A stretch of DNA of 64,000 bases from a virus (IMGVR_UViG_3300023172_003539:1-64000); one strand, 5' to 3'. Positions 53,621-64,000 are shown, numbered from the stretch's first letter. The notes: a model not told the origin generated them from the sequence alone. Program-made: numbers and translations.

Positions 53621-54922
53621 TTAGTTGTATCTTTTTTTATAAAAGACATCAACATAGTCCCATTCATAACTCTTAAAAATAACATCAAAATTATAATCAT
53701 GAGATTGTACAAATTGTAAGGCATCTTCTCTTGCGGCATTCACATATGAAGCACCCGGAACAATATCCAAGTCTGACCATTTTTTCAGTATAAAGTTATT
53801 CTCAACTGTTGGTTTTAGTTTTTTATTATAAAGCAACTTGACTATTTCGCGAAAAGCAGTTCTATAACATACTTGTGGATCGGTATAAAAAGTTGTCTCT
53901 GCACTCAATAAAGAAATATGGTCGTGCTTCTGTGATAGTGTAAAGTCCAGACCTTTGCCGTCATTTTCTAATGTAAGTTTTTTATTATAAAGTATGATTG
54001 CTTGATGTCCGTAAGTGTAATTGATCACAGGATTAAAACAATCAAAAATATAATGTCTTGGAGATTTCAATGTGTCTGGCACAAAATCAAAAGCAAAATC
54101 CTTGTTTACTTTTAGTTTGGCAAAAACGGCATAGAAATATTCTGTTTCACTTGCTCGTGCGGCAGTTTGGTAGGCTTCCTTACGACCTTTGACTCCTTCG
54201 ATTATGTGAAGTTTGTTTGGTTTTTTCTTTAGATGTTGTTTTAAAAACATCAAATTTTCTTGTGCCTGCGGTTCTCCGTTGTGTATATAACAAATATCAA
54301 AATTTAATTTTTCACTGGGATTATCCATCAACAATGTGGGAGAATATTCGTACAACTCTTCTTTCATATCAAATCTCGGTACCAATAAATTTAAACGATT
54401 CTTGTCCAACACATATAACTTTTGATCTTCCCAAAAACTTGGTATTATGCTATGCTGTTTTTTGAAATAATAATTTGCATATCTTGTTTTTTGATTTTTT
54501 ATTTGTTCTGTCAAATTATCAAATGTAAATTTAAATGACGGCCATTCGTTGTATTCAAAATTGGTATCATGATAGTTTATATCCTTATAATCTCTCAAAA
54601 ACTTTATATGATTCATTTGAGATTTAAATTCGTTAGTGGGCAACAACATTATATCTCCCTCTCTCTGTGATTGAGTATTCCATACATGAATTTGTTTTTG
54701 TTGGTGTTGATCGGGAATAAAATTAAAATCAAAATGTTGTAAATTTACAAGATCACTTGTTAACCAAAAAAAATCAGTTTTTACACCATCAACAAAACTT
54801 TTAAGGATGTCAAAGTAACTTCCTACAAACGGAGTCGAAAGAGCATAAGGAAATTTATTGAATAAAAACTCCTTGTTTTTTTGATCTTTTTGAAAATCGA
54901 CAATTACACAATCAAATGCCAT
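53621..54922 (-). CDS. Glycosyltransferase-like protein with duplicated GT-A-like domains
   Basis: KTDFFW...FDFNFIPD...IHVW and ETEYFY...FAFDFVPD...HYIF repeats; NPV..TYGH; RTAFRE. Confidence 0.55.
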   Translation of the reverse strand: MAFDCVIVDFQKDQKNKEFLFNKFPYALSTPFVGSYFDILKSFVDGVKTDFFWLTSDLVNLQHFDFNFIPDQHQQKQIHVWNTQSQREGDIMLLPTNEFKSQMNHIKFLRDYKDINYHDTNFEYNEWPSFKFTFDNLTEQIKNQKTRYANYYFKKQHSIIPSFWEDQKLYVLDKNRLNLLVPRFDMKEELYEYSPTLLMDNPSEKLNFDICYIHNGEPQAQENLMFLKQHLKKKPNKLHIIEGVKGRKEAYQTAARASETEYFYAVFAKLKVNKDFAFDFVPDTLKSPRHYIFDCFNPVINYTYGHQAIILYNKKLTLENDGKGLDFTLSQKHDHISLLSAETTFYTDPQVCYRTAFREIVKLLYNKKLKPTVENNFILKKWSDLDIVPGASYVNAAREDALQFVQSHDYNFDVIFKSYEWDYVDVFYKKRYN

Positions 54923-55982
54923 TGAATTCTTTTATCCTTTTACAAATATAATCAATTTCACTATCGGTTAGGTATGGATAGATCGGTAAACTTAATGCAC
55001 GTTTACAAATTTTTTCAGCATTTGGATAAGACGTAAGCCAACCGTGGTTCAAGGTTTTTGAATAGTGTATTTTTGTTTCTATCCCGTGCTCCTTGAGATA
55101 CTTTTGTAAATCATCTCTTTTTTCATGTAGCAACACCAGTTTATGATAACTGCTTATAGTGTTATTTTTAGATTTTATAAATGATTCAGTAGGTAGATTT
55201 TTAAAATACCTTTTGGCCACTTTTTCTCTCATACTTTGCAATGAATCAAACTTATCTAATAAAAAATTTAATTGTGCTGAATGATCTTCTGGAATCACAC
55301 TGTTGTAACCATAATCCATGTTGTTGTGTAAGCCGTGTCTTCTTAAACTGATCAAGTTTTCGTATACCTGTAAAGAATCGGTTAATATCATGCCGCCTGA
55401 TCCAAAGCAAGGCATATTCTTCATAGGATCAAAACTAAAGATCGATATGTCACCCAGTGTTCCAGATGGAATTTTTTTAAACCAGTTTCCTAAATATGCC
55501 CCTTGTGACTGTGCGGCATCCTCTATGAGAAATATTTTATTATCTTCGCAATATTCTTTTAATCGATTGTAGTCCGCTACATTGCCATATAAATTTACGT
55601 AAAGTATGGCATTTGGTTTAGTCTGTAAATTTATACTACCAATATTTCCAATGTCGTCCACATCAACAAAACGTATTTTTGCACCTAACCTTTTGATTGC
55701 TCCCGCGGTGGCCACGTAACTTAATGCCGGACACACTATGGTCGACGATCTGTTTAGTCCCAGTGCCTTCATTGAAAAGTACAGTCCGTCTGTGGCTGAT
55801 CCCACTCCGACCGCATATTTTCTTTTATATTTTTTGCAAATGTTATTTTCTAATTTTTTTAGTTCTGCACCTAACAACACATTTCCAGAGCTCCATACTT
55901 TTTTCGCTCTACGAGTCAGTCTCCACGAGTATGCATCATACAATCTGTCGACACCGTTAAATTTTATTTTGTAACCACTCAT
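54912..55982 (-). CDS. DegT/DnrJ/EryC1/StrS sugar aminotransferase
   Basis: GSATDGL, YVATA, EDAAQSQGA, SFDPMKNM..GSGG, LSLPIYP. Confidence 0.93.
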   Translation of the reverse strand: MSGYKIKFNGVDRLYDAYSWRLTRRAKKVWSSGNVLLGAELKKLENNICKKYKRKYAVGVGSATDGLYFSMKALGLNRSSTIVCPALSYVATAGAIKRLGAKIRFVDVDDIGNIGSINLQTKPNAILYVNLYGNVADYNRLKEYCEDNKIFLIEDAAQSQGAYLGNWFKKIPSGTLGDISIFSFDPMKNMPCFGSGGMILTDSLQVYENLISLRRHGLHNNMDYGYNSVIPEDHSAQLNFLLDKFDSLQSMREKVAKRYFKNLPTESFIKSKNNTISSYHKLVLLHEKRDDLQKYLKEHGIETKIHYSKTLNHGWLTSYPNAEKICKRALSLPIYPYLTDSEIDYICKRIKEFNGI

Positions 55983-56901
55983 AATAGTATTCTAGTCCTT
56001 GATCAAAAGTTGTTTCTGGTTGATAATTCAATAATTTTTTGGCTCTGGATATATCCAATGTTCCTCTACGAGGATAAAGTTTATGAGCACCTGTATCAAC
56101 TATATCACTCTTACTGCCTGTGAGTTCTATGATCTTTTCTGCCGCCACACGTAATGATGTGGCATTGCCCGCAGTAATATTGAAACTTTGATTGGCTTCG
56201 TCTGATAATGTTGCTTTTATGATACCTTCTGCTGTGTCATTGATATAAGTAAAATCTACTTTGTTGTCACCATCGTGTACTTCTATTGTTTCGTTATTCA
56301 TTGCTTTCTGGAAAAATTTACTTAATACCCTGTCTTCCATGTCTCCTGGACCATAGACTCCGCTCGGTCTTACTATTGCATAATTTATTTTATGTTGAGC
56401 GTGATAATGTTTGACGAATCGTTCCGCAGTTAATTTAGATTCTCCATATAAATTGTTCGGTTTGGTATCTGCGTCTTCTTTGGTTCCATCGGAGAAGTGT
56501 CCGTATATCATTGACGAACTAACAAACACAAACTTTTTCACAGGCATATATTGGCAATGAGAAAGAAGATTTACTGTTCCTCCTATAATATTTTGTACTC
56601 CCACCCACGGATTATTGTTTACTATTTTTGCTCTAGGATATGATGCTAGGTGTATCACATAATCTGGTCTATTTTTAAAAGCAGACAATACATCATCTTG
56701 TTTTGTTACATCTCCGTTTTTACAATAAACGTTTTTCCAGTTTCTCTGTCTCCAAGAATATAATTTTTCGAGATCTTTTTCCGAAATCACTCCATATGTT
56801 TCTTTATTATCCATTACTATAACACTATGATTCATTTCAATTAATCTTTCAACAATCCTAGATCCTATAAAACCATAACCTCCTGTGACTAAAATTCTCA
56901 T
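55957..56901 (-). CDS. NAD-dependent nucleotide-sugar epimerase/dehydratase
   Basis: TGGYGFIGS, SSSMIYG, YGESK, RP..VYGP. Confidence 0.93.
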   Translation of the reverse strand: MRILVTGGYGFIGSRIVERLIEMNHSVIVMDNKETYGVISEKDLEKLYSWRQRNWKNVYCKNGDVTKQDDVLSAFKNRPDYVIHLASYPRAKIVNNNPWVGVQNIIGGTVNLLSHCQYMPVKKFVFVSSSMIYGHFSDGTKEDADTKPNNLYGESKLTAERFVKHYHAQHKINYAIVRPSGVYGPGDMEDRVLSKFFQKAMNNETIEVHDGDNKVDFTYINDTAEGIIKATLSDEANQSFNITAGNATSLRVAAEKIIELTGSKSDIVDTGAHKLYPRRGTLDISRAKKLLNYQPETTFDQGLEYYYEWLQNKI

Positions 56902-58385
56902 AAAACTTTTACTCCATATTTGTTGGTAAATGCTTTACCATCATCTTTGTCATTTACTATAGGTTGTCCTTTTATATTCAAACTGGTGTTAAGCAGTATA
57001 GGGCAACCTGTTTTCTTTTTCCATTGCGTAAGCAATTCATAAAAACCTGGATTGTCTGCTTTAGACACTGTTTGAACCCTACTCGTGTTATCGTAGTGTA
57101 TTATGGCAGGAAAGTCTTTACCATGCGTACAAACCGCTGTGTGTTGCATATAAGGGGTGTTTTTAACACCTTTAGGTAGGGTAAAATACTCGTTCACATC
57201 CTCTTCTAATATGGCTGGTGCGAATGGTCTAAACTTCTGTCTTTTTTTAATACCATTTACCAAATCCTTGATTTTTGATCCTCTAGGATCAGCAAGTAAT
57301 GATCTATTACCAAGTGCTCTTGGTCCAAACTCCGCCCGACCATTGGCCACTCCCACCATTTTATTTTCCAACAATTCCTTTATGAGAGCATCCACAGGAT
57401 ATTCACCCTCTATGTTCGTGCCCAAAAATGGATGTTTCCAATTTAGGTGTCTGTGCATCGAAGCGGCTATACAACCCAACGAACTACCCGCATCTCCGGG
57501 ATTGGGCATGATCCATGATTTATCGTATATTTTCTTGTTCATTAAAATTGCATTGGCCACACAATTCAATGCCACGCCTCCACCATAACATAAATTACGA
57601 CTTTCACCATATTTGCTCACAGCACGTTGTCCGTCTGGTATGTAAGTCGTACTCCATTGCCATATATGAGTGAGTGCTTCTTGTATGACTTTTTGAATGG
57701 ATGCGGCAAGATCCATGGGATCCGCTTCCGGTAACCAATTTCCTATTCCTCTGTGTAAATTTCTTTTTAATTCCAGAGTTCGATAATCCAACAATTCATT
57801 GTAGATATTATCTCGGTACTTTGGTGTTCCGTATGCTGACATTCCCATCAATATGTATTCTTCCTCTGCGGGTTTCAATCCAACTCTTTGTGTAAAAGCA
57901 GAATATAAGATTCCCAGTGAATGAGGATATTCCATGCTTTCCAGTTTTTCTATTTCGTTGCCTTTGGCTTTCCATATAGTCATAGTTTCCCATTCTCCTA
58001 TGGCATCCACACACAACACCATGGAATCTGTAAAGGGCGATGTGAAAAAACTTCCGGCCGCATGCGAATGATGATGATCTACATACTGGTCAATTTTGAT
58101 TCCAAACTGTTTTAAATGTTCCGATGGCAGATTCTGTGTTGTAAAAACTTCCGACCATTGTCCCGCTCTAATCTGTCGTCTCTTTTTTAACCATGGTTTT
58201 TCATAATACACCACTTTGTCAAAAGGACCATAACTCATTGCCTCGTTCACTATCCCCCAGTTCAGGTGATGATCATTTTTTATCTTGCTGTATCTCTCGC
58301 TATGTGCGGCCCATAGAATATCTCGGCCGTCAACCACAGCCATGGCGGCATCATGATTCATACAATTTATTCCTAATATTCTCAT
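56898..58385 (-). CDS. Carbamoyltransferase (NodU/CmcH/TobZ family)
   Basis: HDAA, HHHSHAA, DAIGE, SLG, MGMSAYG, GGVALNC, GDAG, EFGPRALGNRS, FRPFAP, SRVQTV, LNTSLN. Confidence 0.96.
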   Translation of the reverse strand: MRILGINCMNHDAAMAVVDGRDILWAAHSERYSKIKNDHHLNWGIVNEAMSYGPFDKVVYYEKPWLKKRRQIRAGQWSEVFTTQNLPSEHLKQFGIKIDQYVDHHHSHAAGSFFTSPFTDSMVLCVDAIGEWETMTIWKAKGNEIEKLESMEYPHSLGILYSAFTQRVGLKPAEEEYILMGMSAYGTPKYRDNIYNELLDYRTLELKRNLHRGIGNWLPEADPMDLAASIQKVIQEALTHIWQWSTTYIPDGQRAVSKYGESRNLCYGGGVALNCVANAILMNKKIYDKSWIMPNPGDAGSSLGCIAASMHRHLNWKHPFLGTNIEGEYPVDALIKELLENKMVGVANGRAEFGPRALGNRSLLADPRGSKIKDLVNGIKKRQKFRPFAPAILEEDVNEYFTLPKGVKNTPYMQHTAVCTHGKDFPAIIHYDNTSRVQTVSKADNPGFYELLTQWKKKTGCPILLNTSLNIKGQPIVNDKDDGKAFTNKYGVKVL

Positions 58386-58765
58386 AAAGATTCTATATAT
58401 TTTTTTAATTCTTTATCCTGTACATCGGTAGGTATTTCATTTTTGTAAAATATCCTATAACTATCACTGCCATATTTTCCTATTCCGTGTAGATCCGACG
58501 CATCTTCACCATTCCAGTTTAAAAATTGCTCGCTCATTTTTCTCAATCTTTCCGATCTCACACGCCACATTCCCAAAGGTTTTAATAATTTTTGCTGTGC
58601 TGATAATCTACCTTTGAGATAACTTTTGGCATTCGGATATCGTTTGAATAATTCACTTAAAACACGTTTGGCTTGTTTTCTGTAAGTTTGATTGAGGCAG
58701 ATAACACCCACCATGTGTTGCCATTTGTTTTTGACCTGCTGTTGTACCATTAGATCTTCTCTCAT
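58382..58765 (-). CDS. MBD4-like HhH mismatch DNA glycosylase
   Basis: LNQT...LLKPLG...LHGIGKYGSDSYRIF...DKELKKY, close to the MBD4 catalytic domain pattern. Confidence 0.85.
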   Translation of the reverse strand: MREDLMVQQQVKNKWQHMVGVICLNQTYRKQAKRVLSELFKRYPNAKSYLKGRLSAQQKLLKPLGMWRVRSERLRKMSEQFLNWNGEDASDLHGIGKYGSDSYRIFYKNEIPTDVQDKELKKYIESL

Positions 58766-59127
58766 ATCAGTTCTCCACGATCACGCATCTGTTGTCTTAT
58801 ATTTGTTGCGGATATCTTTTGAGTTTCTTCATCTAACACTATTTCTTCTATTTTGTAACCCACACCCCTGCCATAACATATGTTTGTTATGTTGGGTACT
58901 AGTATCACTTTGAACTGCCCTTCAAACTTGGGATTGAGCCTTTCCTCAATATTTTTCTTAACAGTTTCAAAATCAAATGGATTGTCATCAACACCTTGCA
59001 CATCTCTGACCATTATCAATACCTGCCCTGTTTTTTTGTGTATCTCCTGGAACAATTTATAGTGCCCGTCATGGAACGGTTGCCATCTTCCTAGCATTTG
59101 TGCTGTTGGTTTTTTATTGTCCCACAT
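58762..59127 (-). CDS. HIGH-motif nucleotidyltransferase (cytidyltransferase-like)
   Basis: LGRWQPFHDGH...ISATNIR. Confidence 0.8.
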   Translation of the reverse strand: MWDNKKPTAQMLGRWQPFHDGHYKLFQEIHKKTGQVLIMVRDVQGVDDNPFDFETVKKNIEERLNPKFEGQFKVILVPNITNICYGRGVGYKIEEIVLDEETQKISATNIRQQMRDRGELI

Positions 59128-59551
59128 TTTTCTTCTCCCATATTATATCTCGTATTTCCTGTGTTATCAAAAATGCCCAAGTCTCAGCATCTTTTGATGT
59201 ACATCTAAAATCAAACGTTGTCGGTGGCTGAAAAAGTTTGTTGGTGTCCTCAAATCTACCCTCTTTGATTGTGTCCATCCATATCAGATAATCTGCTTTG
59301 AATTGTGCTCTTGTTTCTTCAGTGGGGCAAACAAAATCAGCGATCACAACTCTGCCTTTGTCTAACGCCTCTTCGGCGTACGTCCACATCCTCAGTGCTT
59401 GTCTCTTTCTGCCTTCGTCTGAGAAATCCCAATCATTGCATTCTTCTCTTATCTTGTCAGCATTTAGCCATACAGCATTCAACCTTGGTGCTATCATTTT
59501 TGCCAATGTAGTTTTGCCCGATCCGGGTAGTCCCATTATCAATATTTTCAT
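59114..59551 (-). CDS. Adenylylsulfate kinase-like P-loop kinase
   Basis: GLPGSGKTT, NADKIR, DFSDEGRKRQ, FVCP. Confidence 0.8.
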   Translation of the reverse strand: MKILIMGLPGSGKTTLAKMIAPRLNAVWLNADKIREECNDWDFSDEGRKRQALRMWTYAEEALDKGRVVIADFVCPTEETRAQFKADYLIWMDTIKEGRFEDTNKLFQPPTTFDFRCTSKDAETWAFLITQEIRDIIWEKKNVGQ

Positions 59552-60111
59552 TTTAGTTTAAAAAACCCTTTCGCTCTTTCTAAATACTTGTTCCATTGTT
59601 CCAGTGTAATGTCATATTCAAAATTTTGTGTTGTGTCGTTGCGTTGTAATAGTTTTGCTCCGTTCTTTATATGAAACCTTTCGGCCATTTCTGTCAAAGG
59701 ACTTAAAGTGACTAATCTTTCTATGTGTTGTTCTCTTTTAAATTTTTTAAAAATTTCGTTTAATATGTGTTTTCCGCCACCTTTCATTTTGGCCCAAACT
59801 GTATAAGCAACTGCTATTTTTCCCACTATGCCTGCCCGCAACACCGACGGACCGGCCGCATCACGACTCAACATATCTAGTTCTTCGACTGTTGTGGGGA
59901 TTTCATTTGTGAATGCTATGCATATGATTGCCATGATATCACCATTTTTGTTTTTGAGTCCATAAATTTTTCTTCCGTAGATAGTACGAAATGTGAGAGA
60001 CAATTCCGGTCTCACCGGATCCTCTGTTATATCTATATCATTCATTTCGATCAAATTAAATTTAGAATTCTTTCGAAAAATATTGTTTATTTTTTCTTTT
60101 AATTTTTCCAT
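59548..60111 (-). CDS. Hypothetical protein, possible GNAT fold
   Basis: AVAYTVW...GGGK...VTLSP...A.RFH.KNG. Confidence 0.6.
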   Translation of the reverse strand: MEKLKEKINNIFRKNSKFNLIEMNDIDITEDPVRPELSLTFRTIYGRKIYGLKNKNGDIMAIICIAFTNEIPTTVEELDMLSRDAAGPSVLRAGIVGKIAVAYTVWAKMKGGGKHILNEIFKKFKREQHIERLVTLSPLTEMAERFHIKNGAKLLQRNDTTQNFEYDITLEQWNKYLERAKGFFKLK

Positions 60112-60761
60112 TTTGTAAAAACTACTTCTTTTTTTCTTGATCTTCCAAATTCTTTATATCCCACACTGTCTAAAAACTCTATTATTTGTTTTCCTTTTCT
60201 TCTTTGTGCTTCATTTTTATGTTCTATTTCCACGTTCAATACACAGTCATTATTTCGTAGTGTTTCTTCGCCGCCTAATAAGATGTCGTATTCACTGCCT
60301 TGTGTATCAATCTTTATTAGATCAACATCGGTAAATTTAAAATCATCTAATTTTTTTACTTGTAATTCAGATTTATCAACATTATCTTCAAATATTTGAT
60401 CTCTAAAAAAACTATGTCCTCCTGATGTTGTAGGACTGATATAAAATTCTTTGACTTCTTCTTTACTACCTAAACCAACTTCATGTAAAGTGAAGTTTTT
60501 ATAGGTTTTTAAATTTTCTTTAAGACATTTAATATTTGACGGATCCGGTTCAAAAATTATCACTTCATTGAACTTATTACAAAAATCTTTGCTCCAAAAT
60601 CCAATATTGCCACCTATATCAATTGCTTTTCGAAATTGTTTTACTCTGGCCAATGCATATTCTCGTTGAAGGCGTTGATACGTTGTTTCATTGTTGATAC
60701 GCATCCATTCTTCATAATGAACATCATAGTCTGGCAAAAACCAATTGTGTACTGTTTTCAT
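60099..60761 (-). CDS. FkbM family methyltransferase
   Basis: IDIGGNIG, FEP, LDD, IKIDTQGSE. Confidence 0.9.
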   Translation of the reverse strand: MKTVHNWFLPDYDVHYEEWMRINNETTYQRLQREYALARVKQFRKAIDIGGNIGFWSKDFCNKFNEVIIFEPDPSNIKCLKENLKTYKNFTLHEVGLGSKEEVKEFYISPTTSGGHSFFRDQIFEDNVDKSELQVKKLDDFKFTDVDLIKIDTQGSEYDILLGGEETLRNNDCVLNVEIEHKNEAQRRKGKQIIEFLDSVGYKEFGRSRKKEVVFTKWKN

Positions 60762-60762
60762 T

Positions 60763-60867
60763 TTACTTGTAAATAAAAGGGTCTTTTTTCTTTAATTCTT
60801 TTAGTCTTTTTCTATAAGCAATTTGTTGCTTTACTTTATCAATCAAAGACCTAATCCATTTGATCAT
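60763..60867 (-). CDS. 34-aa basic amphipathic peptide ending DPFIYK, not in ORF track
   Basis: MIKWIRSLIDKVKQQIAYRKRLKELKKKDPFIYK; AGGAG SD; overlaps the SGNH gene end and abuts the FkbM start. Confidence 0.75.
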   Translation of the reverse strand: MIKWIRSLIDKVKQQIAYRKRLKELKKKDPFIYK

Positions 60868-61660
60868 TTTTTTCTCCTATTATTTTTTTAAATTCGGGTA
60901 ACATTAACATTATAGCATCTTTATGTGCTTGGTCAAGCGGATGAGTTGATGCTCTCGGATAGTCATTTAAAAGTGCCCATTGGTTAAATCCCATATGCCT
61001 GTCTCCAAAAGTGAACCATTTGGTAAAATCTATTTCTTTTAAAAGATTTTTTAATAATTTGTCGTTTTGGTATAATAATTCAAATTCTTCCCAGAATAAT
61101 GTGTTATCGGCGAGTGTAAACATAAATGGTATTTTCTTTTTTTCTAATATATTTTGTAACCAAACGATGCTTTTCCAACTTAGATATGTTTCATGATAAC
61201 GATTTGCCGCATTCTTATAAAGTGAATCGGCAAATGCTGTGACTTTCGCATCAGAAAACTCTTTTCTTCTTTTTTTAAAATCTCGTATTACTGAATCATT
61301 ACCTATCAAAGTTTTTAATACTTCTGCTTCGTTTTCTGTACAGTCCCAGGGGGTTATAGTGGCCCAACGAGTATCTTCTAATATGTTATGTCTAGGCATC
61401 GCCCAATCATAACGTGAAGGAAAAGTCCACATGACAGTCACAGCAACCTTTCTGTTATCGTTGTCCGAAACTGCGTTGAACACCCTTCTGGCTATACCGG
61501 AGTTCCCTAACCCTCCTTTTGCCGAATTGACAAAATCCATGCCTGTTTGTTGTGACAACAATGCCGCCCATGACATTTTTGAAGGATTGATACCATCGTC
61601 GTCAGATAATTCGTTACCAAATGTAAAACTACAACCACCTGCTACCAATACGTCACTCAT
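60851..61660 (-). CDS. SGNH/GDSL-like hydrolase/transferase
   Basis: Block I GCSFTFG, block II NSAKGG.GN, block V THP...H. Confidence 0.75.
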   Translation of the reverse strand: MSDVLVAGGCSFTFGNELSDDDGINPSKMSWAALLSQQTGMDFVNSAKGGLGNSGIARRVFNAVSDNDNRKVAVTVMWTFPSRYDWAMPRHNILEDTRWATITPWDCTENEAEVLKTLIGNDSVIRDFKKRRKEFSDAKVTAFADSLYKNAANRYHETYLSWKSIVWLQNILEKKKIPFMFTLADNTLFWEEFELLYQNDKLLKNLLKEIDFTKWFTFGDRHMGFNQWALLNDYPRASTHPLDQAHKDAIMLMLPEFKKIIGEKNDQMD

Positions 61661-62852
61661 AAATCTTTAATAGATTATTTAAATCCTTAAAAGTTTCTCC
61701 AAAATTTTCTTTCCTGACGGAATCGATTGATTTTATTTTTTCAGTTAATGCTTTTTTCCAATCCTTAATCTTGTAGTCAGGTTCTCCGTTAATATAGTCA
61801 ATAGCCGTCTGTATTTCTTGTTGGTATATTTCAGTTTTTCTAAGTTTGTCAATTATCTGTTGCTTGAGCTCTCTAGGAATCTGTTGTATATCAAACTCCA
61901 CAGGATGATGCAATATGTTTATGTACCAAAAATCTGGATTCCATTCTTTTACTTTATGTGCTAACTCGTCAATGTTCCATATGTTAAAAAAATTTAGAGT
62001 TGTGCATATCTGCGTAGAAAGATTTTTTAATCCTGAATTTAAAAATCGATTTATGTTTGAATCAACTTCTGTCCATACAGCAGGATGTCTTTGATACTCA
62101 AAACGTTTTTCAATATCGTCAATGCTGAATGCTATTTCTACCCTTTTAAAATGTGGCCAAATGTCTTTTACTGCTTCTTCCGGATACTGTGTACCATTGG
62201 TGTTGTAATGAACTTCTATTTTATCTGCCACTCCTGCTTCCACACACTTACGTAAAATTGAAAATTGCTCTTTTATCATTAATGGCTCTCCGCCCGTGAT
62301 CTCAAAAAATCTTATCGAGTCTATGTGCTTCTCTAGATCTTCATAAAATTTGTTAGGCTGTCTTGGCCATAATCCATCTCGATTGAATTTTTTCCAATAG
62401 TCTTTTCTGTTTGGGTCTATCCTGATCATGTCGTTCGTCCATTGAGAACTTGAGTGAGGCGAACATATTCTACATTTTAGATTACAAATATTCCCTAACT
62501 TTAAATCAATAAATCTAGGCGAAACTATATTTTTTTGTATATGAGTTTGACCTATTACTCCTGCCTTTAACCACATATGTTGTCTCTTTGAAGTTTTACC
62601 TACTGCTTCTTCTTTCCAACAACTGCTACAACTACTGGGTTTTTCTCCATTTAAAAATTGTTTTCTCAAATCATCCATGGCATCGGAATTCATTACTTCC
62701 GATATCGAATGTTCCGTTGTATTGTATTTTTTCCCGGAAGTGTCTTTTAATTCTTCCCTATACAAACAGCAAGGCTTGTACCTGCCATCGGGCCTAGTTT
62801 CTAAACTAGTCCATGGAAGATGACACATATTACTTTTTAAATATTTTTCCAC
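61653..62852 (-). CDS. Radical SAM protein with N-terminal twitch/SPASM-like Cys cluster
   Basis: CHLPW...PCC...CSSCW; CNLKCRIC; GGEP; YNTNGT; SID. Confidence 0.9.
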   Translation of the reverse strand: MEKYLKSNMCHLPWTSLETRPDGRYKPCCLYREELKDTSGKKYNTTEHSISEVMNSDAMDDLRKQFLNGEKPSSCSSCWKEEAVGKTSKRQHMWLKAGVIGQTHIQKNIVSPRFIDLKLGNICNLKCRICSPHSSSQWTNDMIRIDPNRKDYWKKFNRDGLWPRQPNKFYEDLEKHIDSIRFFEITGGEPLMIKEQFSILRKCVEAGVADKIEVHYNTNGTQYPEEAVKDIWPHFKRVEIAFSIDDIEKRFEYQRHPAVWTEVDSNINRFLNSGLKNLSTQICTTLNFFNIWNIDELAHKVKEWNPDFWYINILHHPVEFDIQQIPRELKQQIIDKLRKTEIYQQEIQTAIDYINGEPDYKIKDWKKALTEKIKSIDSVRKENFGETFKDLNNLLKIYE

Positions 62853-64000
62853 CAGTCTAATATCCTTTTATCTTTTTCAAGTATTTTTGTTATGTCTTGA
62901 TTCCTTAATTTATCGATTGATTCTTGTCTGCTCTTACCACTCTTTTTTCCCCTGAAAGCATCAAATCCCAAAAACATATCATCGATATTTTCTCTCATCT
63001 TTAAATTTTTGAGAGTGTCTATCAATGCCTGTTGTTTTCTGTTTGCCTTTGGTTCCATGTATTCTAATGCTTCATCTATAATTTCGCACATGAGTTCTCT
63101 AGGCAATGCCAACGGACTCAACACAGCCGATGCACTAAAAGTGAACATCACTTTGGTCAATATTTCTACATCTAATTCCTGGCTCAGATCAAACATATTT
63201 TTTAATTCTAATAATCCTGGCATTGTGATTGTGAAATCTAATCTCATTTCCCTTGATGTTTTTGCTACCGCCAATCCTTTTTTAAAATTACCTAACCATT
63301 CTTTGTAATTCAATCCATCACGTATGTATTCTCCCACATCTCCTGTTCCGTCGATCGAAGCACATATTTGCCAATCCTGAAACTGTGGCAACAACTTAAA
63401 AAGATCAATATTCTTAAATGTTGTTCTACTTAAATTGGTATTATATCTAACATAAACATCCTTTGAAAATCCCAAATCAATTATCCTTTGCATACTGTTC
63501 CAGTGTATTTCCCACATCAACGGTTCTCCGCCACACCAATATATTTCTTTTATTTTTTTTGTTTCTATCGCATCAGTAAACTCTTGTACTATTTGTGTGT
63601 CTTGAAAATTTTTAATTTGTTCACGCAACGGAGAAGCCATCCATGGTTGAGAATCTTCGTTCCATGTTTTGTTTTTCCTCGACTCGGCTTCCCAACTGGA
63701 ACTCAACATATCTCCGCACATTCTACATTTGAAATTACATAGATTATTAAATCTATAATCAAAACTTATCGTAGGCATTGTGGTTGCTCCGTTTTCGTCT
63801 GTGCTTTCAAATGCTTCGTCTATTTTATTAGCAAAGAGTTTGTTCCAATAAGATCTATAGACATTTGTATTCAACAGTTTATGATCACATACCTGGCATT
63901 CGGATAATTCTTCTCCGGCTAGCATTCTTCGTCTCACAGAACGCATATGTTCTGAATTCCAATGTTCTTCTAACGTTAGAGGTTTATACTCATTGGCATC
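62837..64000 (-). CDS. Radical SAM protein with twitch-like domain, 5'-truncated by window edge
   Basis: Frame open to base 64000; CQVC; CNFKCRMC; GGEP; YNTN; SIDG; YIRDG. Confidence 0.9.
   Translation of the reverse strand, partial: DANEYKPLTLEEHWNSEHMRSVRRRMLAGEELSECQVCDHKLLNTNVYRSYWNKLFANKIDEAFESTDENGATTMPTISFDYRFNNLCNFKCRMCGDMLSSSWEAESRKNKTWNEDSQPWMASPLREQIKNFQDTQIVQEFTDAIETKKIKEIYWCGGEPLMWEIHWNSMQRIIDLGFSKDVYVRYNTNLSRTTFKNIDLFKLLPQFQDWQICASIDGTGDVGEYIRDGLNYKEWLGNFKKGLAVAKTSREMRLDFTITMPGLLELKNMFDLSQELDVEILTKVMFTFSASAVLSPLALPRELMCEIIDEALEYMEPKANRKQQALIDTLKNLKMRENIDDMFLGFDAFRGKKSGKSRQESIDKLRNQDITKILEKDKRILDWWKNI

Follow-up and report, generated by a model that had tools for sequence, protein, structure and literature searches.

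The DNA considered here, 64,000 nucleotides (nt) from a virus, a marine phage (IMGVR_UViG_3300023172_003539:1-64000; the whole stretch is called the window in the following), is part of an 83.6-kb viral contig estimated to be about 23% complete, and it encodes on its minus strand a microprotein of 34 amino acids (aa), MIKWIRSLIDKVKQQIAYRKRLKELKKKDPFIYK (60763..60867), with DPFIYK as its C-terminus. This small open reading frame (ORF) is a real gene with a conserved tyrosine tail, and its family is physically, and often translationally, coupled to genes for a carbamoyltransferase. We propose that the peptide is the dedicated partner of the NodU/TobZ-type carbamoyltransferase encoded nearby and that its working part is the D-P-F-I-Y(-K) tail. 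The enzyme would make carbamoyl-AMP from ATP and carbamoyl phosphate and would put the carbamoyl group on the hydroxyl of Tyr33; the carbamoyl-Tyr tail may then be further processed by an adjoining SGNH-fold serine enzyme, a GNAT-like protein and methyltransferases, which could remove, trim or pass on the modified tail. Binding of the peptide to the enzyme, the Tyr as acceptor atom and everything downstream are steps that we infer, and we put forward only tentatively, giving it slightly less than an even chance, that the linked enzyme uses the tail as acceptor of the carbamoyl group, the Tyr hydroxyl being the likeliest site. This chance includes the idea of an earlier note on the same DNA, according to which the carbamoyltransferase loads the Tyr and the SGNH protein moves the group to a glycan; such a relay to the SGNH serine takes up the smaller share and is unlikely overall, the rest falling to a modified peptide that is itself the trimmed or tailored product. 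By analogy with known systems the finding would be a carrier with a tyrosine tail or else a ribosomal peptide that becomes carbamoylated, the chemistry being proposed.

If the tail is carbamoylated, it would belong to a widespread virus-encoded system of peptide modification, or to a carrier system, that gene callers miss. Acyl-tyrosine chemistry, described recently for MBOAT systems in membranes, would then be found also with a soluble, ATP-dependent enzyme and with a new group, and the "Nol-like carbamoyltransferase" genes of marine phages, which are supposed to be auxiliary metabolic genes, would be given a function. Even with the relay wrong, there remains a well-defined and strongly constrained microprotein family that is worth annotating.

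A Genuine Gene for a 34-aa Peptide

The ATG of the peptide gene (60865-60867) lies 17 nt within the 3' end of the gene for a 269-aa protein of SGNH type (60851..61660, minus strand) and is preceded at a distance of 6 nt by the ribosome-binding site AGGAG (60874..60878, minus strand); GGAG-type sites are found upstream also in the aligned relatives. The N-terminal stretch of the peptide is hydrophobic and aromatic and its middle is basic and helix-like, 12 Lys/Arg being counted ahead of the tail. A membrane-spanning hydrophobic run was not seen when the sequence was read by eye, no predictor having been run.

Related loci were sought in viral contigs via the 269-aa SGNH protein and not via the peptide. 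Besides one identical locus, 28 loci were found whose SGNH proteins are 54–62% identical, and all 28 contain a small ORF ending in DPFIYK, in 24 of them directly after the SGNH gene and in the other four 0.8–1.2 kb farther on, directly before the gene for a 187-aa protein. The earlier note, which had pointed to an ORF ending in PFIYK that overlaps the end of the SGNH gene, had its coordinates exactly right, and a presence in 28 of 28 loci is not a matter of chance. Of the final 17 residues, 16 (YRKR-L-KELKKKDPFIYK) do not vary among the 22 distinct versions of the DNA, and for 13 of these 16 at least two synonymous codons are used (six for Leu25, three each for Arg19 and Pro30). Since the residues stay invariant despite the synonymous codon changes, selection acts on the protein rather than on DNA or RNA, and the 34-aa ORF is a genuine gene that is strongly constrained at the protein level. 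In a metatranscriptome library there is a contig of 331 nt that spans 60543-60873 without a mismatch and covers the peptide and the start of the next gene, which is weak evidence of transcription because DNA may occur in such libraries.

With respect to transcription, a sigma-70-like site (60909-60936, minus strand; TTGACC, 16 nt, TG-TATAAT, 11 of 12 positions) lies within the SGNH gene, 42 nt upstream of the peptide ATG. It is the best match in a scan of 10.5 kb, in which sigma-70-like sites are just as frequent as expected from shuffling (42 found versus 42.9).

A Family of Peptides with a Conserved Tyrosine Tail

The peptide has numerous relatives. An exact scan of viral contigs for the KKDPFIYK coding pattern yielded at least 119 stretches, and a profile built from 39 peptides matched, at E ≤ 0.001, 364 cluster representatives among 1.84 billion proteins, nearly all of them 29–75 aa long. 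The statistics of the tail are taken from the 149 best of the 364 representatives. DP[FYWLM]xY is kept in 137 of the 149, and the residue after the Tyr is K in approximately 100 (including the few that extend beyond the tail), is lacking in 14, which end at the Tyr, and is otherwise H, D, E, R, F or N. The constrained core is thus D-P-[F/Y]-x-Y, after which there is one variable residue or no residue at all. That the residue after the Tyr is free or absent points to the Tyr as the residue that matters for function, rather than the Lys at the end. The earlier note would have been given up had the Tyr not been conserved; it is in fact the best-conserved feature of the family. The N-terminal half is variable, yet its start stays hydrophobic and rich in Trp and the middle strongly basic, and inside subfamilies the N-terminal pattern of Trp and Lys is conserved. 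The family members carry no source name beyond "hypothetical protein" and no Pfam domain, and a full-text literature search (supplements excluded) gave no description of a DPFIYK-tailed peptide family.

Some loci contain a second, paralogous peptide with the ending DPYVYK, DPYEYK or DPYLYR (L160:550-648; L166:1338-1475; L173:2044-2229). In L160, for example, the second peptide is followed by a 397-aa class I S-adenosylmethionine (SAM) methyltransferase (635-1825) and this by the canonical peptide. One member of the family (L257:1869-2033, also L270:7959-8123) comes from a contig in the bin of a Pelagibacterales genome. It has the ending DPFIYKNF and therewith a complete FXYXXF motif, to which we come back below; two SGNH-like genes are located 1.5–3.5 kb upstream of it, and no carbamoyltransferase was found in the 11 kb covered.

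Among the matches in prokaryote genome bins, 10 of 28 are real small ORFs. A bacterial origin of these matches is not favoured: on one such contig, of 183 kb and from a Haliscomenobacter bin, there is also a T4-type major capsid gene, and the genome-bin matches are therefore read as phage contigs. Profile matches that run past the tail (KQ..., KW...) look like stops read through by gene callers that used another code, not like fusions. In a phage collection, tblastn with the 34-aa peptide gave no match, the likely cause being the short, low-complexity query; blastn with a locus composed of primase, peptide and carbamoyltransferase (L041) also gave none, and tblastn with the short carbamoyltransferase of L041 found only three distant records. 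No cultured phage with the peptide emerged from these searches.

The tail Tyr is encoded by TAC in 79 of 91 distinct motif-seeded loci and by TAT in 12, the neighbouring genes having 70% TAT. In the tail, TAT-AAA-TA would spell TATAAATA, which we take to be the T4 late-promoter consensus, and the excess of TAC may simply avoid creating it.

Coupling to Carbamoyltransferase Genes

The carbamoyltransferase of the window (56898..58385, minus strand) is a 495-aa protein of the NodU/CmcH/TobZ type (PHROG 1601) with a Kae1-like N domain, which contains HHxSH, and a YrdC-like C domain; it passes both Pfam models (Carbam_trans_N with 150.6 bits, Carbam_trans_C with 179 bits). Among 39 sequences there is no variation in H104, H105, S107, H108, D127, G297, D298 or the GPRALGNRS block, and judged from these residues the enzyme retains its catalytic, metal-binding and adenylate-site motifs. 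The earlier note had placed this enzyme in one operon with the peptide, which agrees with the arrangement of the genes: from 53621 to 64000 they are all on the minus strand, with neighbours abutting or overlapping, and the sole terminator-like site in this region is intragenic.

The linkage recurs elsewhere. Among the matches listed, 51 distinct motif-seeded loci have at least 1.5 kb of flank on both sides, and in 37 of these a carbamoyltransferase gene is present within 2 kb of the peptide. The spacing was determined in 94 distinct loci. The carbamoyltransferase starts at most 30 nt from the peptide stop in 21 of them (18 with an ATGA overlap), is farther off in 31, and is not in the available flank, often of just 300 nt, in 42. 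There are two unrelated settings in which the two genes are linked, a sugar-enzyme cluster as in the window and a replication module, the latter with the order Toprim primase, peptide, DUF2061 membrane protein, carbamoyltransferase, helicase. The DUF2061 protein, which has two helices, is often located between peptide and carbamoyltransferase (L036:1626-1874, minus strand; L050:2024-2257) and is also found beside carbamoyltransferases without peptide (e.g., L213:1430-1663).

The linkage was also looked at from the side of the enzyme, using the best 80 of 596 viral relatives of the carbamoyltransferase and seeking the peptide within 4 kb, where it was present in 46 of the 80. Three families travel with it: the SGNH family is found in 36/46 peptide-bearing versus 1/34 peptide-free loci, a family of 433-aa proteins in 34/46 versus 2/34, and the 187-aa protein in 21/46 versus 0/34. 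Radical SAM genes do not discriminate (36/46 versus 24/34). A maturation of the peptide by radical SAM enzymes is not favoured, their presence being similar without the peptide and the genes being absent from the primase-helicase context. It should be noted that most peptide-bearing loci are close kin and that the peptide needs just five changes on the enzyme tree. In the corresponding five independent contrasts the SGNH family changed in the same direction in 2.2, in the opposite direction in 0.2 and not at all in 2.7 (p ~0.5); with only five contrasts the test, whether for SGNH, radical SAM or the 433-aa family, is underpowered and significance unreachable. Co-folding of carbamoyltransferase and peptide gave scores of 0.02 and 0.23 (mark 0.32) and counts neither way. 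Near the Nol-like carbamoyltransferase of P-SSM2, no PFIY-type small ORF was found within 5 kb.

Observations That Speak Against Carbamoylation of the Tail

The proposal that the tail is the acceptor of the carbamoyl group has to be weighed against several observations that do not fit it well. In the window itself the two genes are not adjacent, since 2.4 kb with five genes separate the peptide gene from the carbamoyltransferase gene downstream, and in 13 of the 51 loci neither a carbamoyltransferase nor an SGNH gene is found within 2 kb. Conversely, 34 of the 80 carbamoyltransferase-seeded loci have no peptide; a search of these 34 for an alternative Tyr-ended basic small ORF yielded three candidates, all of them spurious, and there is no alignment column that separates the 43 peptide-linked from the 24 peptide-free distinct enzymes (cut-off 90% versus 15%). 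Moreover, many of the linked enzymes of the primase-helicase type of locus have a short form, in which the Kae1-like domain with HHxSH and NPGD is kept and the adenylate-forming C domain is gone. Examples are the carbamoyltransferases of 313–339 aa encoded between primase and helicase in L041, L033, L044, L050, L064 and L101. Because the adenylate-forming YrdC-like domain is missing, the short forms cannot make carbamoyl-AMP themselves and would have to obtain it, or a related adenylate, from outside. A search for peptide-enzyme fusions gave eight candidate longer proteins, none of them significant, which is weak evidence.

Finally, the tail is found in phages in which neither enzyme was detected. 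Five podovirus-like records, of which one is 94% and four are 34–59% complete, encode proteins ending in KKDPFIYK, and both the carbamoyltransferase and the SGNH family are represented in 0/5. A phage-encoded carbamoyltransferase is therefore not required for the tail to be present.

Carbamoylation of Peptides and Tails in Known Systems

A precedent for carbamoylation of a flexible tail is the carbamoylation of the C-terminal Cys of HypE by HypF. As proposed for the phage peptide, a YrdC/Kae1-type carbamoyltransferase there modifies a side chain in the flexible C-terminal tail of its partner. Unlike the 34-aa peptide, HypE is a 300-aa enzyme, the acceptor is a Cys, and a hydrogenase context is not seen in the phage.

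Closer in size are ribosomal peptides. [quoted passage not shown] The crocagin (CgnA/CgnD/CgnI/CgnL) and std (StdA/StdF) systems share with the phage cluster a short ribosomal peptide, a C-terminal motif with an aromatic residue, a NodU-type enzyme, an esterase-like protein and a methyltransferase. All four kinds of components (precursor, carbamoyltransferase, esterase-like protein, methyltransferase) are present in the cluster, a likeness in kind that need not mean kinship to the Cgn proteins. Crocagin and std differ from it in that genes of the CgnB/CgnE type, for a CgnC dioxygenase (Pfam scan of the window), for YcaO or for MNIO were not seen in the phage cluster, and in that the phage family is viral, has a very uniform tail and is surrounded by sugar enzymes. 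CgnD is not among the 50 best structural matches of the SGNH model, which excludes nothing.

The SGNH-Fold Protein and a Possible Relay

The 269-aa protein (60851..61660), which has no Pfam or PHROG match, is predicted to have an SGNH fold with a helical insert at about residues 84–175. Foldseek places its structural model (pLDDT 82) with GDSL lipases, TesA and CE2 esterases (E 5e-5); the VIA Z values are 15.8 for 1z8h (root-mean-square deviation of 2.8 over 165 residues) and 15.6 for 1u8u, in both cases with approximately 165 residues at about 3 Å. Ser11 (in GGCSFT; GDS in some relatives), His240 and His246 are invariant among 24 sequences, and Gly50 and Asn53 are at least 90% conserved among the same 24, which include paralogues of only 22–25% identity. 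The model and these residues bear out the earlier note, which had recognized an SGNH-fold gene with catalytic Ser and His. With Escherichia coli TesA and the CE2 esterases the protein shares the fold (Z 15–16, ~165–170 residues) and the Ser, Gly, Asn and His blocks; it differs from them in an identity of only about 12–13%, in the helical insert of ~90 residues, in having no Asp three residues before the His and in the missing Pfam match. The Asp of a DxxH triad was not found: three positions ahead of His240 the window protein has Ala, and its close relatives in the alignment have Gly, Ala or Val but never Asp. The protein may work with a Ser-His dyad or with an Asp located elsewhere. On reading the N-terminus (MSDVLVAGGCSF) no signal peptide was recognized, no predictor having been run.

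SGNH-like genes are less often close to the peptide than carbamoyltransferase genes, namely within 2 kb in 16 of the 51 loci, 15 of which also have a carbamoyltransferase. Where they occur, their order varies: L108 has carbamoyltransferase, peptide and SGNH, L044 two SGNH genes, peptide and carbamoyltransferase, and L039 the peptide followed by three SGNH genes. Among five long records of the primase-helicase type (24–67% complete) only one has an SGNH profile match. The co-occurrence that the earlier note had proposed as a check is therefore seen for the carbamoyltransferase and in several SGNH gene orders, and it fails for most loci with respect to a nearby SGNH gene and for the many enzyme loci that have no peptide.

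The full relay is a special case of the favoured reading, in which the fate of the group is defined: the carbamoyltransferase loads Tyr33, and Ser11 of the SGNH protein takes over the carbamoyl group and passes it to a glycan or another acceptor that the sugar enzymes encoded nearby would make. Both the loading of the Tyr and the hand-over to the SGNH serine are conjecture, and we consider the relay unlikely. The model for it is the shuttle motif FXYXXF, the Tyr of which is acylated by an MBOAT and unloaded by an extracytoplasmic SGNH transferase (PMC12148441). DltX/DltB/DltD and PatA/PatB are such shuttles. With them the phage system has in common a C-terminal F-x-Y with conserved Tyr, the small size (DltX is a microprotein) and an adjoining SGNH gene. 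It differs from them in that the tail stops at the Tyr or one residue later, without xxF, in that MBOAT/AT3, a membrane helix and a signal peptide on the SGNH protein are lacking and a basic stretch precedes the tail, and in that the proposed group is a carbamoyl from a soluble ATP-dependent enzyme rather than an acyl from a thioester. The earlier note had likened the tail to the FIY motif of DltX; the likeness holds for the F-x-Y at the C-terminus, whereas FXYXXF is incomplete in nearly all members. Its description of the system as free of MBOAT was correct, no MBOAT or AT3 family being found by Pfam among 13 cluster proteins nor among the further ORFs scanned.

For the relay speaks that F-x-Y is the core of a motif whose acylated Tyr serves SGNH transferases as donor (PMC12148441), and that the one member ending in DPFIYKNF has this motif complete. 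SGNH genes adjoin the peptide in several unrelated gene orders and, among carbamoyltransferase-seeded loci, occur with it in 36/46 versus 1/34 without it, the catalytic Ser and His do not vary, distant SGNH paralogues included, and nucleotide-sugar enzymes are abundant in the cluster, with tail-fibre genes adjoining. Against this stand the only five descent-corrected contrasts (p ~0.5), the low frequency of SGNH genes within 2 kb (16/51), in primase-helicase-type records (1/5) and in podovirus-like records (0/5), and the absence of xxF from nearly all members. In addition, with no MBOAT, membrane helix or signal peptide the parts look cytoplasmic, so that the membrane crossing for which a shuttle is needed is missing and it would be enough for the carbamoyltransferase to transfer the group directly. 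Carbamoyl-serine enzymes also turn over slowly. If there is a relay, it could be a soluble one without MBOAT, with an aryl carbamate on a free microprotein, one or several SGNH paralogues that unload it onto different acceptors, and a portable tail module that other phage proteins have acquired; this, too, we regard as doubtful. Modified sugars, virion glycans or the host envelope may be the acceptors.

Other Possible Functions of the Tail

Instead of being modified, the peptide could be a non-covalent accessory of the carbamoyltransferase, i.e., an activator, a plug or a tether to the membrane or to the DUF2061 protein. The 18 ATGA overlaps would fit this well, such coupling being typical of subunits made in a fixed ratio, and so would the frequent position of the DUF2061 gene between peptide and enzyme, the hydrophobic to amphipathic N-terminal half with its strongly basic continuation, and the lack of a substrate-pocket signature that splits enzymes with and without peptide. 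However, the best-conserved part of the peptide is a short tail ending in Tyr, which is too small for an interface, and phages that lack the enzyme have this tail too, on Cys-rich proteins that are unrelated. An unmodified accessory is therefore improbable.

These Cys-rich proteins lead to another explanation. They are 82–89 aa long, have a Cys/His-rich core (CGH.SHC..KC.DC.CEHCNC) followed by the KKDPFIYK tail, and are encoded in podovirus-like capsid modules (L032:1758-2027, L068:1779-2027; also L030, L049, L080 and L117). Since they and other small proteins of podovirus-like structural modules end in KKDPFIYK, the tail could be a portable C-terminal tag that is read by a host factor or by a virion or assembly component, and its adjacency to the enzyme would be operon history. 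The podovirus-like records, with neither enzyme (0/5 each), and the 13 of 51 loci with neither nearby are in line with a tag. It should be considered, however, that no candidate reader is known, that four of the five enzyme-free records are only 34–59% complete, and that in at least two unrelated genome contexts the gene is again next to that of the carbamoyltransferase, stop and start codons overlapping; we give a tag only a small chance.

Very improbable is a regulatory leader, i.e., a ribosome-arrest or coupling peptide whose C-terminal 17 residues act in the exit tunnel on the next gene: conservation is concentrated in these residues, the N-terminal half being variable, the start of the next gene, which has no Shine-Dalgarno site of its own, is often at the stop or a few nt from it, and known arrest peptides are of similar length (24–34 aa), but the downstream gene varies (carbamoyltransferase, GNAT-like, FkbM, kinase, DUF2061 or SGNH), the tail also ends longer proteins, some loci have two paralogous peptides, and the N-terminal Trp/Lys pattern is conserved in subfamilies as well.

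The Gene Cluster Around the Peptide

In the direction of transcription, two radical SAM genes are followed by the genes for the 269-aa SGNH-fold protein, the 34-aa peptide, an FkbM methyltransferase, the 187-aa GNAT-fold protein, a P-loop kinase, a cytidylyltransferase-like protein, an HhH-GPD-like protein, the carbamoyltransferase, an epimerase, a DegT aminotransferase and a 433-aa protein, all on the minus strand. The cluster is rich in nucleotide-sugar enzymes and adjoins tail-fibre genes. The FkbM-family methyltransferase gene (60099..60761) has its ATG 1 nt after the peptide stop (TAAaATG). The 187-aa protein (59548..60111), encoded directly after the peptide in many relatives, is predicted to have a GNAT fold (pLDDT 81), the nearest structures being malonyl-CoA decarboxylase and the CurA loading domain. 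There follow the P-loop kinase, which is APS-kinase-like (59114..59551; Pfam, PHROG), the cytidylyl/adenylyltransferase-like protein with an HxGH motif (58762..59127; Pfam, PHROG) and, assigned weakly with 29.5 bits, the HhH-GPD-like protein of 127 aa (58382..58765). Downstream of the carbamoyltransferase, Pfam identifies an NAD-dependent sugar epimerase/dehydratase (55957..56901) and a sugar aminotransferase of the DegT/DnrJ/EryC1 type (54912..55982); the 433-aa protein (53621..54922), which co-travels with the peptide, belongs to a virus-only family with a weak lead to GT-A glycosyltransferases.

The radical SAM protein encoded directly upstream of the SGNH gene (61653..62852) has an N-terminal twitch/SPASM domain (NF033640) and is one of five tandem paralogues, the second of which (62837..64000) continues past the end of the window. 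The five extend over 61653-64000 of the window and L230:1-5794 (G000 63001-68794), the array being interrupted by a second small GDS-motif protein, of 199 aa (L230:3762-4361). The same array lies upstream of the SGNH gene in all related loci. Besides the three other paralogues and the 199-aa protein, the part of the record farther upstream holds unassigned ORFs and several tail-fibre genes. Among the tail-fibre genes is one for a 471-aa protein (L230:13436-14851) with long Gly-rich repeats and then a Cys-led segment that looks, from its sequence, like a Hint/intein type. Approximately 14 kb upstream (L230:12769-13443) a 2-oxoglutarate oxygenase of the Asp/Asn beta-hydroxylase type is encoded (PF05118, 40.6 bits); PF05118 is a protein-hydroxylating family, which could matter if the Asp or Pro of the peptide is modified.

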